From IMG/VR virus record IMGVR_UViG_2687453623_000006: a stretch of 39,437 nt of DNA. One strand, given 5' to 3'. Of this stretch, positions 1 to 14,103 are shown piece by piece; the stretch's first letter is position 1; the number at the start of each line of letters is the position of its first letter. The DNA is from a virus (taxonomy: Duplodnaviria > Heunggongvirae > Uroviricota > Caudoviricetes). The notes under the pieces are model-generated. The model was not told the origin of the DNA, did no database searches, and worked only from the letters and a program-made list of their open reading frames with translations. The translations under genes and the position numbers were made by a program.

Positions 1-342
1 CTACGCGACCTTTTTTGCACGCTCTTCACGGCGTGCCAAATATTCAGCCACTGTTTCAATCCGTCCCAATTCTTCCTGGGTACGCATGTTGTTTTCAACT
101 TCCCAAAGATCAACTGCCGCCTGGAGGTTTAGCCAAAAATCGACTGTGGTATCAAAAACTTTCGCCAGACGGAATGCCATCTCAGTGGTGAGTTTACGAT
201 TGTTATTGATCAGTGCACTGACGCTATTACGATGAACATGCAGCAACTCTGCTAACTCATTGATTTTCAAATCGAGCGGTTCCAGATATTCATAGAGAAG
301 AATATCTCCGGGTGTCGTCGGTTTTCTTGTTGCCTGTTTCAT
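1..342 (-). CDS. higA: HigA-family antitoxin (XRE-type HTH)
   Basis: 113-aa ORF with HTH core PGDILLYEYLEPLDLKINELAELLHVHRNSVSALINNNRKLTTEMAFRLAKVFDTTVDFWLNLQ typical of HigA antidotes; 35 bp downstream of a HigB-like ORF on the same strand. Confidence 0.8.
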   Translation of the reverse strand: MKQATRKPTTPGDILLYEYLEPLDLKINELAELLHVHRNSVSALINNNRKLTTEMAFRLAKVFDTTVDFWLNLQAAVDLWEVENNMRTQEELGRIETVAEYLARREERAKKVA

Positions 343-377: not shown

Positions 378-680
378 TTAGTAGTTGTGTGGGTCTAAAA
401 ACAATTCTTCGGCCTTGCCATTAACCCATTTAAAAATCAGTCGGTACTGTTTATTCACTCTAATGGAGGAGTATTCCTGTAATTTCCCGGATAACTCTTC
501 GTATCGGTTCCCCGGAGGGGAGCGTAAATCCCGATGAGAAGTGGCAGCATTAATGATGTCCAACTTTCGTGATAACGTGGTATGGATTTCAGCAGGGATC
601 TTTCGATGTGGCGTTGAATGGACAAAAAAATCAGCCAACCAGGCATCACGAAAACTCCTTATATTTTTCTTTTGAGCCAT
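378..680 (-). CDS. higB: HigB-family toxin (RelE/ParE superfamily mRNA interferase)
   Basis: 100-aa ORF; IRSF near N-terminus, SPPGNRYEELSGK and WRxxF-like RLIFKW segment and C-terminal HNY match the HigB killer-protein pattern; toxin-first operon order with higA. Confidence 0.75.
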   Translation of the reverse strand: MAQKKNIRSFRDAWLADFFVHSTPHRKIPAEIHTTLSRKLDIINAATSHRDLRSPPGNRYEELSGKLQEYSSIRVNKQYRLIFKWVNGKAEELFLDPHNY

Positions 681-10133: not shown

Positions 10134-10472
10134 ATGATCGGGTTACGTATTAAAGAAGAAAGAGAGCGTCTATCTCTTACACAGCAAGGGTTGGCTGATG
10201 CTATAGGTGTGGCAAAGAGAACTTTCATTGATTGGGAAAAAGATCGCACTTCTCCTACTGCAGTGCAGTTATCTGCACTATCAGAAATCGGTGTAGATAT
10301 TTTGTATGTAGTTACTGGGGTGCGGAGTCAGCCTGTTGTTGCACCTTATGTGTCACAAGAAAAGAAAGAGTTAATGGATGCATTCGACGAAATGAGCCCC
10401 GAACAACGGAGGGCAATTCTTGAGGTCGGCAAAGTCTTCATTCAACCCAAACCAAGCAAACTCGCAGGCTGA
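10134..10472 (+). CDS. XRE-family HTH repressor (lysogeny repressor candidate)
   Basis: Track ORF 9981..10472; HTH domain begins at the internal ATG 10134 (MIGLRIKEERERLSLTQQGLADAIGVAKRTFIDWEKDRTSPT); divergent from the early operon. Confidence 0.65.
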   Translation: MIGLRIKEERERLSLTQQGLADAIGVAKRTFIDWEKDRTSPTAVQLSALSEIGVDILYVVTGVRSQPVVAPYVSQEKKELMDAFDEMSPEQRRAILEVGKVFIQPKPSKLAG

Positions 10473-10557: not shown

Positions 10558-10590
10558 ACCGGAAAGCATTGTGCTTTCCGGTTTTGTTTC
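10558..10590 (+). terminator. Rho-independent terminator downstream of the repressor
   Basis: Perfect 11-bp stem ACCGGAAAGCA/TGCTTTCCGGT with 3-nt loop followed by TTTTGTTTC. Confidence 0.5.
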
Positions 10591-11353
10591 AGAAGTTGCA
10601 GATTACCAGTTCACGGCGCGGCGTAGATTTCCCCGCCAGACTGTAGTTGATGTTCACTGTCTGTATGTTCAGTCCAGTGAACACCTCGCGCATCTGTGGG
10701 ATATCGTTCACCGAAATTATCATTTTTCCTCTGATGCACCGGGCCAGCTCTGCCAGCCGCGAGTAGTTCCCTTCAGGAAAATCCACACCATAGCCTTCCG
10801 TACCCAGGTACGGTGGGTCGCAGTAGAACAGTGTGTGCGGACGATCATAACGCTCAATGCACTGTTGCCAGTCCATGTGTTCTATGACTGTTCTGGAAAG
10901 CCGCAGGTGTGCTGCTGACAGTTCTTCTTCAATACGCAGCAGGTTGAAGCGTGGCGGGGATGTGGTGGAGGTACCGAAGCTGTGCTCTGCCACCTTGCCG
11001 CCAAACGCCTGCTTCTGAAGGTAGTAGAACCGTGCCGCACGCTGGATATCCGTCAGTGTTTCTTCCGGGGTGATCTGCAGCCATTTGTAGATCTGACGGC
11101 TGACCAGCGCCCATTTGAACTGGCGGACAAATTCTTCCAGGTGATGCTTTACCACCCGGTACAGATTCACCAGTTCACCGTTGATATCATTGATGACTTC
11201 GATCTTGCCGGGTGTCTTAAGAAAATAGAGCGCTGCTGCCCCACAAAACGGCTCCACATAACATTCATGCGCCGGAAACAGCGGCAGGATGTGTTTTGCC
11301 AGGCGACGTTTGCCACCAATCCATGGAACGATGGGTAATGTCTTCATTTTCAT
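10589..11353 (-). CDS. dam: Dam-family DNA N6-adenine methyltransferase (orphan)
   Basis: 254 aa; N-terminal WIGGKRRL, SAM-binding motif EPFCGAAALYF, catalytic motif DPPY; no adjacent restriction endonuclease. Confidence 0.8.
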   Translation of the reverse strand: MKMKTLPIVPWIGGKRRLAKHILPLFPAHECYVEPFCGAAALYFLKTPGKIEVINDINGELVNLYRVVKHHLEEFVRQFKWALVSRQIYKWLQITPEETLTDIQRAARFYYLQKQAFGGKVAEHSFGTSTTSPPRFNLLRIEEELSAAHLRLSRTVIEHMDWQQCIERYDRPHTLFYCDPPYLGTEGYGVDFPEGNYSRLAELARCIRGKMIISVNDIPQMREVFTGLNIQTVNINYSLAGKSTPRRELVICNF

Positions 11354-11544
11354 AATCTGTAAGCCTTTTACAATTATTAAAAATATGGCAGGCTAGTCTG
11401 GTCTCGCGAGACTGACTGAACCTCGGTCGGCTCACAGCCACTTCTGTGGGACGATGGCCAGCCCGGTGGGTCCGAAGCACCGGGCTGGTCGTTCTTTCAT
11501 GATGCGGCAGGGATAGTGGGATTTCTGTTAATGTGGTTTAGGGA

Positions 11545-11760
11545 TTATCCGGGGCGATTTTCTGACCTTATCCGGTCCAGGGCATAAGTAATACCTTCTG
11601 CAAAAACAGAAGTATCAAACTGCTTTTGTATTCCCTGAAAATGAAAAGCGGCACGACAGACACTCAGTTCTCCGCGATGTAACCGGATAATATCTTCCAG
11701 AACATTGTTCACTGCTTCAGCACGGCGCTGATGTTCTGTTAACGTTAATCGGGGATTCAT
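11545..11760 (-). CDS. hypothetical protein (71 aa)
   Basis: ATG at 11760 preceded by AAGGAG at good spacing; no recognisable motif. Confidence 0.4.
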   Translation of the reverse strand: MNPRLTLTEHQRRAEAVNNVLEDIIRLHRGELSVCRAAFHFQGIQKQFDTSVFAEGITYALDRIRSENRPG

Positions 11761-12163
11761 GATGCACTCCTTAAATGATGATTTTTATGCACTCACCGGC
11801 AAAATATTCTGCCGATTACTGAACACGCATCCGGCACCTCAGGTTTTGATTTATTCTGGTTTTTTCGATATCCCGGACCAGGTTGATCACGACCAGAAAA
11901 AGTGCCGGTATTTTATTGATACGCTGATATGGCTTCGGGATAACAGCTATATTCGTTACTCTCAGTTGCTGGCTGTGGGAGCGGCTGATGTCGTCCTCAC
12001 GGAAAAAACGCTCCGTCTGCTCAATGCCACGCCGACCCTTCTGCAGCCCCGGCCCGCACCATTTAAAGAGTCACTTCTGGATGCAGTAAAAACCGGTGAA
12101 AATGCAGTCATCGCTGAATGCGTATCCCGGATTATGCGTTACGTGTTTAATGAACGTAAGTGA
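11759..12163 (+). CDS. hypothetical protein (134 aa)
   Basis: Start codon overlaps the start of the divergent 71-aa ORF; GGGGA upstream; 3' end overlaps the convergent P-loop gene by 25 bp. Confidence 0.3.
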   Translation: MMHSLNDDFYALTGKIFCRLLNTHPAPQVLIYSGFFDIPDQVDHDQKKCRYFIDTLIWLRDNSYIRYSQLLAVGAADVVLTEKTLRLLNATPTLLQPRPAPFKESLLDAVKTGENAVIAECVSRIMRYVFNERK

Positions 12164-12882
12164 GGTTTATCCGCTGTCTGCATAATCCCGATAGCCAGTG
12201 CGAGGGGAAGTAATTCCGGGGAAACTCTTTCAAACAGCGACTCCCATTCTCCTCTCGCCATCACTCTGTCCAGCCCGCCCCCCAGTTGCATTTCAGCAAT
12301 CTTCCTGATTTCCCGGAACAACGCCGCTTTGATCTCTTCGTGCTCAGCTTTATTTTCCGGTGTCAGAATGTATTCGTCGAAGAACCGGGGAGGCTGGTTA
12401 ACGGGGAGCGTGTTCACCGGGATGTGTTCCTGTTTCCCGTACTTCGGGGCAGAAAAACATTCTGTTGGCTGACCGGTGAGTTTACGTAGCTCCTTCATGA
12501 GCAGCTCCTGATCGTAAACTGTCATCAGTGCCGCAATGGTGGCATGCAGTGCATCGGGCAGTATCCAGGGTTGCCGGCCCGTGGGGCATATAACATCCAG
12601 CAGCTCATTCGTCCGACAGATACGCTCCTCGCCGTATGACAACAGGCCCTGTCCCGTGTATTCCTCCAGCCTGATCACTGTGCCACCCCGTGGCTTCTGC
12701 CAGGTCGTCAGATCATCGCCACTCATACGCCGCTCATCATCTACGTCTGCAGCATCGACAATGACGCTGCCCCCGAATTCCTGTTTCACCACTTCCTCTA
12801 TCCGCGCCAATATGTAACTTTTACCGCTGCCCACAGGACCGGACACGGTGACAGTGATGACCGGATTCAGTGTCTGCGTCAT
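12139..12882 (-). CDS. P-loop NTPase of unknown function
   Basis: 247 aa; Walker A GPVGSGKS at residues 15-22, candidate Walker B VIVDAADVDDE; GAGGAG RBS; transcribed divergently from the late operon. Confidence 0.55.
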   Translation of the reverse strand: MTQTLNPVITVTVSGPVGSGKSYILARIEEVVKQEFGGSVIVDAADVDDERRMSGDDLTTWQKPRGGTVIRLEEYTGQGLLSYGEERICRTNELLDVICPTGRQPWILPDALHATIAALMTVYDQELLMKELRKLTGQPTECFSAPKYGKQEHIPVNTLPVNQPPRFFDEYILTPENKAEHEEIKAALFREIRKIAEMQLGGGLDRVMARGEWESLFERVSPELLPLALAIGIMQTADKPHLRSLNT

Positions 12883-13012
12883 ATCGTATTCTCCTCTGTG
12901 AATAATTCATCGTTTATCCTGCACATCCCGTATCCCCGGCTCTCTTAACGCGCTTTAAAATCCTTCGCGCCCTGTATTTGTGATGCTGTCTCCACCAGAC
13001 AAGGAGACACAC

Positions 13013-13363
13013 ATGAAAAACCTGAAAAAATTCATTCCCCCTGTTAAAAAACCTCGCCTCAGCGGCTGGCTGCTGACCTCAGTGCTGTTGCTGGGCACCA
13101 TCGCTCTGGTCTCGCCACAGCAGTTGCCTGTTGTGATCTACAAGCTGGCACTCATCACGCTGGCAGCAGTGCTGGGTTACTGGCTTGACCGTTCGCTCTT
13201 CCCCAAAGCCCGTCCCGGTCAGTACCTGAAACATGACGACAGGCTGATGGCTGATGGGCGTTTCCCGGTACAGACCGGCCTTCACCTGGTGTTTTCTGCT
13301 GCGTTAATCCGCCGTGCACTGATTGTTGCAGCGGTCTGTCTGGCTGTTGCGATGGGGCTTTAA
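13013..13363 (+). CDS. putative holin / lysis membrane protein
   Basis: Track ORF from GTG 12980; preferred ATG 13013 with AAGGAG RBS; three hydrophobic segments; immediately upstream of the endolysin. Confidence 0.45.
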   Translation: MKNLKKFIPPVKKPRLSGWLLTSVLLLGTIALVSPQQLPVVIYKLALITLAAVLGYWLDRSLFPKARPGQYLKHDDRLMADGRFPVQTGLHLVFSAALIRRALIVAAVCLAVAMGL

Positions 13364-13365
13364 TC

Positions 13366-14103
13366 ATGAACTGGCCGCAGATCACCTGGATTGTATGCAT
13401 GTCCCTGAAACTGGCTTTCGAAGCCTTTAGGGTCTTCATCAGAACCGAACGCCTGTCAGTCCGCGCCGGGACCTTTCTGGTTCATATGGCACGGGTATTC
13501 TTTGTCGCAATGTTGCTCTGGTGTGGCGGCTTCTTCAGTCAGGCCCGCGCAGCGCAGCCTCCGCAGGCAGCGCTGCAGTATCGCGATGATGTGATCCGTA
13601 ATGCCCGGCTTGAATGGGGACTGTCTGCGCCGGTGGCTGATTTCGCTGCGCAACTGCATCAGGAAAGCGGCTGGCGACCTGATGCGATCTCGCCGGTTGG
13701 CGCTCAGGGACTGGCGCAGTTCATGCCCGCCACCGCCGACTGGATAAGTCAGTTGATGCCGGGGCTTAACAGCCGTGAGCCATTTAATCCGGCATGGGCC
13801 ATCCGGGCGCTGGTCAGCTATGACCGCTGGCTGTGGCAGCGCGTCAGCGCCGCCAGTGACTGCGAGCGTATGGCCATGACACTGTCGGGCTATAACGGTG
13901 GTCTGGGCTGGGTACAGCGGGACAGGCGGCTTGCATCACAAAAAGGGCTGGACAGCACCCGCTGGTTTGGTCATGTCGCCACGGTGAATGCCGGACGCAG
14001 CACTGCCAGCTGGCGGGAGAACCGTCATTATCCCCAGCGCATCCTGTTCACGCTGGCCCCGCGTTATCTCTCATGGGGAGGGGCAAGCTGTGTGGGTACG
14101 TAA
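13366..14103 (+). CDS. lytic transglycosylase endolysin (SLT domain) with hydrophobic N-terminal SAR/signal-like segment
   Basis: SLT motif QLHQESGWRPDAISPVGAQGLAQFMPATA; hydrophobic MARVFFVAMLLWCGGFF upstream of the catalytic domain; true start may be the internal ATG at 13486. Confidence 0.75.
   Translation: MNWPQITWIVCMSLKLAFEAFRVFIRTERLSVRAGTFLVHMARVFFVAMLLWCGGFFSQARAAQPPQAALQYRDDVIRNARLEWGLSAPVADFAAQLHQESGWRPDAISPVGAQGLAQFMPATADWISQLMPGLNSREPFNPAWAIRALVSYDRWLWQRVSAASDCERMAMTLSGYNGGLGWVQRDRRLASQKGLDSTRWFGHVATVNAGRSTASWRENRHYPQRILFTLAPRYLSWGGASCVGT

Follow-up and report, generated by a model that had tools for sequence, protein, structure and literature searches.

The stretch of DNA analysed here, hereafter the window (39,437 nucleotides, IMG/VR record IMGVR_UViG_2687453623_000006), is a BcepMu-like transposable prophage of Escherichia coli that carries, beside its lysis genes, a leftward gene for a 247-residue protein with a Walker A motif (the P-loop gene). 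The protein begins with a P-loop domain of about 65–75 residues, the head, whose limits can be drawn and whose key residues are conserved across a wide family. Behind the head lie modules that are lost, exchanged, split and fused from phage to phage, each of them being dispensable, and the head itself is shared with Ea22-like proteins of other phages. From this sequence evidence we propose, with a probability of roughly 0.4, that the gene encodes a mosaic accessory prophage protein, in which a nucleotide-binding head would be combined with swappable adaptor modules to serve as a host-interaction factor.

A small P-loop head with defined limits

The open reading frame (ORF) described in the initial annotation is present on the minus strand, with an ATG start and facing away from the late operon, and both its own ribosome-binding site and the 130-bp divergent spacer separating it from the lysis operon are found as described (Table 1). 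The gene is truly coding and not a chance ORF, since the substitutions that separate eight close island copies fall in excess on third codon positions (15/11/33 for positions 1/2/3), the sole indel within the gene in these copies is 15 bp long and in frame (12403–12417), the protein (N-terminus MTQTLNPVITVTVSGPVGSGKS) matches phrog_3787 end to end (E 3.8e-164, residues 1–247 against profile positions 1–242), RefSeq annotates the coding sequence (WP_000194949.1, hypothetical protein), and the island is matched in 634 of 5,426 complete E. coli genomes, 482 of them over at least 80% of its length. Purifying selection on the gene is indicated. Literature searches on its accession, on its PHROG and on small anti-defence proteins with a P-loop yielded nothing of relevance, and the KS10 paper does not discuss the slot that the gene occupies.

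A word-indexed search for homologues returned relatives in E. coli only, at 65% identity or more. The exhaustive profile search (1.84 billion representatives) gave 65 hits, and beyond the close relatives the match is limited to residues ~1–75. These distant hits are of two kinds: proteins of 224–364 residues that share the N-terminus and continue into unrelated tails, and proteins of 74–90 residues that consist of the mini P-loop segment alone. Two long repeat proteins from the same search (P0048 and P0057) were discarded as spurious. A profile search of genome contigs was also set aside, as it was swamped by generic GSGK patterns and yielded two loci, one of them a false type II secretion system ATPase.

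Conservation was counted over 51 non-redundant (<80% identical) copies of the domain. G20 and K21 are invariant (51/51 each), G15 is kept in 50 and a Ser or Thr at position 22 in 49; this near-invariance places the Walker A motif (GPVGSGKS, residues 15–22), already recognised in the initial annotation, beyond chance. Outside the motif, I28 is conserved in 49 of the copies, E50 in 48, G37 in 47 and an Arg or Lys at position 51 in 42, together with E74 (47/51), which ends the hydrophobic strand TVIRLEE. The key residues are thus retained across a family whose members are 28–45% identical. The Walker B motif that had been suggested at VIVDAADVDDE fares differently: its D43 is acidic in just 24 copies (Asp in 13, Glu in 11), and the conserved acidic residues are instead E50 and E74, of which E74 could play the Walker B role.

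The predicted order of elements is a strand, the Walker A motif, a helix (21–39), a second strand (40–44), a short helix (45–54) with E50-R51, a W61..P64 segment and a last strand (68–74) ending in E74. Profile–profile alignment (hhalign) of the subgroup of the window protein with two other subfamilies gave probabilities of 98.9% (E 2e-17) and 99.5% (E 3e-22). The limits of the domain can be read from both sides. In window-type proteins its start lies at most eight residues from the N-terminus, and in a large set of enterobacterial prophage proteins it makes up the last ~65 residues; these N-terminal and C-terminal fusions, together with the stand-alone proteins of 74–90 residues, bound it to ~65–75 residues. 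A complete alpha/beta core has at least five strands and ~140 residues or more. The mini P-loop domain is an autonomous unit much too small for a canonical P-loop NTPase, being less than half the size of such a core.

A first AlphaFold2 run on a shallow alignment reached a predicted local distance difference test (pLDDT) score of 46, with low-confidence strands at 8–14, 41–44 and 69–74. A second run with 47 sequences gave a confident head (pLDDT 84–91 at residues 10–70, helices 21–39 and 45–54) and low values elsewhere. Among Pfam and NCBIfam, no kinase, ABC or other curated model reached its cut-off, and what matches were obtained cover the Walker A strand and its helix. ABC_tran scored 13.6–16.4 bits against a gathering score of 25, over the Walker A region only, the best kinase models 10–19 bits against cut-offs of 139–715, and the Zeta and KAP models also stayed below their cut-offs. 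In the PDB, only the de novo ATPase 9jix and an adenylate kinase aligned over most of the domain, both below threshold. The mini P-loop form is thus not modelled in Pfam or NCBIfam, the fold class itself being known.

To place the head in its genomic surroundings, we surveyed its contexts as a sample and not as a statistic. All contexts examined are phage or prophage, and no neighbouring gene was found to be conserved across them or among the stand-alone homologues. In Pseudomonas lambdoid prophages a 150-residue form, consisting of the head and a helical tail, lies between the holin gene and HNH/TerS, and gp76 of phage MR15 corresponds to that helical tail alone. In a chimallin-encoding jumbo phage the head adjoins a DNA polymerase gene; in large phages it occurs with TubZ-like, NAD-ligase or Acb2/Tad1-hairpin genes nearby, and it is also found in Burkholderia and Ralstonia jumbo phages. 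The 82-residue stand-alone protein NVP1101O_043 of Vibrio phage 1.101.O (L047 2983–3231) is packed between thymidylate synthase and dihydrofolate reductase. Burkholderia phage BcepC6B gp37 carries the head among exonuclease, methyltransferase and polymerase genes, and a RecT-type phage carries it among tiny ORFs.

The head also occurs in proteins of the Ead_Ea22 family (PF13935, E down to 8.8e-43), where it forms the extreme C-terminal ~65 residues, after the Ead_Ea22 region and a coiled coil. The named carriers, annotated as Ea22- or ead/Ea22-like, are phiV10 p48 (L135 3087–3785, with the head at ~152–220 of 232 residues), O157 typing phages 9 and 10, phiv142-3, APC_JM3.2 and the P1-like phages D6 and JL22; a series of IMG/VR loci (L062–L126) likewise encodes Ead_Ea22 proteins ending in the mini P-loop and the tail ...AGIRIKGE. 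Ea22 proteins are mosaics with a tetrameric coiled coil and swappable dimeric C-terminal domains; they are expressed early and have a pro-lysogenic effect by a mechanism that is not known (PMC10834534, PMC8614690, PMC7093339). The same three papers do not contain "P-loop", "Walker" or ATP as a ligand, nor do they describe this head; the mini P-loop is a fourth kind of Ea22 C-terminal head.

Exchangeable modules in a constant slot

The initial annotation saw behind the Walker A region a single C-terminal part of roughly 170 residues. This part actually falls into two separable helical modules (M, ~82–137, and C, ~178–247) joined by a low-confidence, indel-tolerant linker. Close relatives occur as 247-residue proteins with head, M, linker and C, as 182-residue proteins without M, and as forms of 141 or 158 residues without C. 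Module M reappears at the C-terminus of the unrelated mosaics P0024, P0028, P0058 and P0063, and tails related to module C are found in P0030, P0035 and P0039. In more distant genes of the slot, at least seven further modules recur beside the head, in orders that differ from gene to gene. Among the loci examined, neither M nor C was found outside BcepMu-like slot genes.

In one metagenomic BcepMu-like phage (L006) the same pieces are distributed over three consecutive genes: the head alone (88 residues), a 161-residue protein ending in M, and C alone (76 residues), the first two genes overlapping by 4 nt. Such a pattern of fission and fusion argues that the pieces would work together. Klebsiella phage KP12, on the other hand, retains the slot without the head: an ORF that its record leaves unannotated (L002 2943–3266, minus strand) lies divergent from the holin gene behind the same conserved leader, and encodes a module common to P0034, P0051, P0052 and P0063. 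Truncated, split and headless slot genes among the relatives thus make every module optional, the P-loop head included; what stays constant in every BcepMu-like locus examined is the slot together with its spacer. The initial annotation's cautious description, a P-loop-bearing accessory gene with an open role, agrees with the absence of any curated match at its cut-off and with KP12, which lacks the P-loop module.

The slot also takes up unrelated cargo. Variant islands (L004, L032–L037 and L040) have the 158- or 141-residue form of the gene accompanied by 193- and 328-residue predicted membrane proteins and a 173-residue coiled-coil protein with cysteine pairs; this cargo has no PADLOC match, and its Pfam matches are at the DUF level only.

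In every BcepMu-like locus examined the gene is divergent from the holin and SLT endolysin genes, and the spacer between them is strongly conserved. Among the eight close copies it varies at 7 of its 130 sites, as against 38 of 191 in the spacer at 11354–11544, and several of its blocks are invariant in six diverged BcepMu-like phages. One of these, the core TTAACGCGCTTTAAAA at ~12946–12961, is invariant or nearly so in all six, KP12 among them, and is a candidate late-promoter or Mor-binding element. In the 5' leader of the holin gene there is a perfect 7-bp inverted repeat (TGTCTCC/GGAGACA, 12987–13009), conserved in the same six phages, whose 3' arm overlaps the holin Shine-Dalgarno sequence AAGGAGA; this arrangement suggests translational control of the holin. 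The idea that the P-loop protein is a divergently transcribed regulator of the late promoter was rejected, as the C-terminal modules vary freely beside a nearly invariant spacer, and such a role for it is unlikely.

On its other side, the P-loop gene is the first gene of a leftward accessory block. In the window the convergent orf134 is wedged between it and orf71, the two start codons of orf71 and orf134 overlapping back to back in the CATG at 11758–11761. In two related loci (L027 and L029) a deletion has left 18 codons of orf134, and only short gaps separate the successive P-loop gene, orf71 and Dam-type methyltransferase gene, orf71 lying 56 nt downstream of the P-loop gene. This gene order indicates that the three genes probably form one transcription unit, into which orf134 would have been inserted as an optional cassette. 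A second copy of orf134, 28% identical, is present in another locus (L030), and the three-gene phage L006 has a 28%-identical homologue of 188 residues at the same relative position. The initial description of the P-loop gene as stand-alone consequently holds only in part, given its head-to-tail arrangement with orf71 and Dam on the same strand and the 25-nt overlap with orf134.

Over this region the window shares 95.7% identity with Escherichia phage PhiKM (genus Bcepmuvirus). Its leftward early operon encodes Ner, an IclR-type helix-turn-helix (HTH) protein, DUF3102, the transposase, a B-like AAA protein, Gam, GemA and Mor, and ends in HigB and HigA. The HigB toxin gene (378–680, minus strand; Pfam HigB-like_toxin, E 2.7e-32) precedes an HTH_3 antitoxin-like gene (1–342, minus strand), and this pair at the far end of the operon provides the prophage with a toxin–antitoxin module. 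The repressor gene runs rightward and ends at 10472. Right after it, and immediately past the Dam stop codon, an 11-bp-stem hairpin is followed by TTTTGTTT (10558–10582). It is a terminator of the rightward repressor transcript; no T-run for the leftward direction was found at this hairpin.

Table 1. Positions in the window of the P-loop gene, its parts and the surrounding genes.
Feature	Position	Strand	Basis and remarks
Orphan Dam-type N6-adenine DNA methyltransferase	10589–11353	-	Pfam MethyltransfD12 (E 5.9e-29); RefSeq; last gene of the same-strand block
orf71 (phrog_4490)	11545–11760	-	ORF list, PHROG, RefSeq; next same-strand gene
orf134 (phrog_2266)	11759–12163	+	ORF list, PHROG, RefSeq; convergent with the P-loop gene, 25-nt overlap of 3' ends
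P-loop gene, 247 residues, ATG start	12139–12882	-	ORF list and sequence; stop codon 12139–12141
Helical module C, residues 178–247	12142–12351	-	Presence or absence in relatives
Proline-rich linker, residues 138–177, predicted disordered	12352–12471	-	pLDDT ~26–28; 15-bp in-frame indel 12403–12417
Helical module M, residues 82–137, ...PWILPDALHATIAALMTVYDQELLMKELRKL...	12472–12639	-	Presence or absence in relatives
Mini P-loop domain, residues 1–75 (core ~8–75)	12658–12882	-	Profile search, conservation counts, hhalign, AlphaFold2
Walker A GPVGSGKS, residues 15–22	12817–12840	-	Direct sequence reading
Spacer common to the P-loop gene and holin, 130 bp	12883–13012		Sequence; conservation comparison
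Shine-Dalgarno GAGGAG, 8 nt upstream of the P-loop gene ATG	12891–12896	-	Direct sequence reading
Holin, first gene of the late/lysis operon	13013–13363	+	Pfam Holin_2-3 (E 1.5e-41); RefSeq; ATG at 13013
SLT endolysin, right after holin	13366–14103	+	Pfam SLT (E 2.1e-14)

Possible roles of the protein

In the mechanism that we favour, the constant element would be the head of ~65–75 residues, built from a first strand that leads into the Walker A motif and its helix, then two strands and a short helix, and carrying K21, S22, E50-R/K51 and E74. Its ligand would be a nucleotide or some other phosphate compound. Since a head of this size falls short of a complete NTPase core, it would probably bind as a dimer or a larger oligomer. 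Such oligomerisation would be consistent with the mounting of the head on the tetrameric coiled coil of Ea22-type scaffolds, where the remaining C-terminal domains form dimers (PMC10834534). The linker and both helical modules would be interchangeable adaptor or oligomerisation pieces, setting the partner or the assembly state. The protein would then act on the host and not on virion production, as is thought for the mosaic lambdoid Ea22 proteins, and it might target the physiology or the immunity of the host, or the developmental decision. Expression would probably come from the conserved spacer shared with the late operon, in one unit with orf71 and the orphan Dam methylase.

Several observations weigh against this proposal. 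DSSP assigns no strand in the confident model of the head, and whole-chain fold searches with the AlphaFold2 model returned nothing useful, so that the assignment of a P-loop fold rests on the sequence pattern. Three family members (P0028, P0051 and P0052) have GAE(S/N/D)(S/A)GKN in place of GPxGSGKS, keeping the Lys and replacing the Ser/Thr by Asn. The Ser/Thr of a Walker A motif normally binds Mg, and Mg-dependent catalysis therefore cannot be universal in the family. The parallel with Ea22 is one of architecture only, since the window protein has no Ead_Ea22 signature (no match to PF13935 at E<=1). A simple scan of the 130-bp spacer found no sigma-70-like promoter, and the conservation of the 5' part of the gene could partly reflect the adjoining regulatory spacer acting as a recombination anchor.

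A specific sub-case of host interaction is counter-defence, which we regard as fairly unlikely. The head would here sequester or consume a nucleotide-derived immune signal or substrate, or serve as a Walker-A-only decoy that poisons the dimerisation of host ABC/SMC-type defence ATPases, with the variable modules directing it to different host systems. The mosaic architecture resembles that of an arms race, Walker A segments of the ABC and kinase types give the best full-length similarity in sequence, and large phages that are apparently virulent have the domain among their early or accessory genes; one homologue has an Acb2/Tad1-hairpin gene ~4.5 kb away, and a Lar restriction-alleviation gene lies near another. 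Orphan Dam methylases are typical anti-restriction genes, and the probable co-transcription with one points in the same direction. However, these neighbourhood links are loose, no partner gene is conserved, and no known anti-defence family is matched. In its most general form, the idea would make the domain a natural minimal P-loop, oligomeric and portable, deployed in host–virus conflict across unrelated phages, for example as an immune-signal sponge or an ABC/SMC decoy, on adaptor modules or on the Ea22 scaffold; this wider proposal we hold to be unlikely. A toxin or defence ATPase, suggested in the initial annotation, found no support here and is less probable still. As a prophage-encoded anti-phage defence, superinfection-exclusion or toxin ATPase expressed from the lysogen, it would fit a gene with its own ribosome-binding site that faces away from the late operon, in a variable cargo island between repressor and lysis genes where relatives carry lipoproteins and membrane proteins, and in a prophage that already has a HigBA module. 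Yet PADLOC returned only sub-threshold matches at the level of the Walker A motif (mad8 at E 0.0046 being the best, SngB at E 0.028), the cargo proteins are unmatched, no effector domain or obligate partner is present, and orf134 is dispensable; moreover, the same domain is found in jumbo and other large, apparently virulent phages and in the early regions of lambdoid phages.

We consider it improbable that the protein is a minimal nucleotide kinase or a helper of nucleotide metabolism, for instance in the dTMP or dNMP pathway, despite the 82-residue homologue between thymidylate synthase and dihydrofolate reductase in Vibrio phage 1.101.O, weak matches to adenylate, APS and cytidylate kinases that span the entire domain, and a metagenomic homologue automatically annotated as thymidylate/uridylate kinase. 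A domain of ~70 residues is too short for the NMP-binding and LID elements, all kinase models stay far under their cut-offs, D43 is not conserved, and no nucleotide-metabolism gene lies near the P-loop gene in the window prophage. The particular case of a housekeeping kinase conserved in all related phages is further contradicted by KP12, which has no head, and by the shortened or alternative forms in other BcepMu-like phages. An even smaller chance is given to a regulator of lysis timing that acts on the adjacent holin. The gene is next to a holin in two unrelated groups (divergent in BcepMu-like phages, just downstream of it in Pseudomonas lambdoid prophages), but the domain sits in early or replication regions elsewhere, KP12 retains the same lysis cassette without the head, and the C-terminal modules differ between phages whose holins are 98–99% identical. 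That the gene is a decaying, functionless remnant of a larger ATPase gene is hardly credible: the databases do hold many truncated or frameshifted copies, but against decay stand the codon-position bias and the in-frame character of the sole indel, the retention of the full-length form in hundreds of genomes, and the family-wide conservation of the key residues.

Should the mini-domain prove able to fold and bind nucleotide unaided, nature would offer a counterpart of the laboratory "P-loop prototypes" that serve in arguments on how the oldest enzyme fold arose. It would also give phage accessory genes, a poorly understood set that includes the fourth type of Ea22 head, a portable functional module with a clear mutational handle (K21, S22, E50 and E74). 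Roughly one complete E. coli genome in nine has a match to the gene, and many of these come from human isolates, which should make a phenotype easy to study; the lysis–lysogeny balance, counter-defence and host physiology are candidate phenotypes.

Comparison with known systems

Compared with KG-class kinases (adenylate, APS and cytidylate), the domain aligns at sub-threshold scores over the Walker A motif GPxGSGKS, the helix, the second strand and the short helix, but it has less than half their size, without strands 4–5 and without the NMP-binding or LID regions. The start of an ABC nucleotide-binding domain is resembled in the Walker A motif, the helix and the "G-x-V-x-V-D" strand, whereas the Q-loop, the LSGGQ signature, the Walker B–D-loop and the H-loop are missing. 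RefSeq names the 141- and 158-residue homologues "ABC transporter ATPase"; this name and that of "KAP family NTPase", also attached to shortened homologues, are unjustified. As for family collections, phrog_3787 covers only the close form of 242–247 residues.

Closer in size are two laboratory constructs, the engineered 6c2u ("phosphate-loop protein") and the de novo ATPase PL2x4_2 (9jix), which, like the phage domain, consist of a very small unit of strand, P-loop and helix. The alignment with 9jix covers profile positions 8–76 (E 3.4e-4), the likeness being at the level of the motif only, and both constructs differ from the phage domain in their laboratory origin.

The Ead/Ea22-like proteins (PF13935) differ from the window protein in several respects. 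The latter has neither the Ead_Ea22 nor a coiled-coil signature, its head is N-terminal where theirs is C-terminal, and its gene lies beside the lysis genes of a Mu-type phage, in contrast to Ea22 genes, which belong to the exo-xis or early region. The Ea22 C-terminal domains characterised to date (lambda, V1–V3) are domains other than the mini P-loop. Both, on the other hand, are mosaic, accessory and non-structural proteins with swappable modules, and a subset of the Ead/Ea22-like proteins, phiV10 p48 among them, shares with the window protein a homologous mini P-loop domain.

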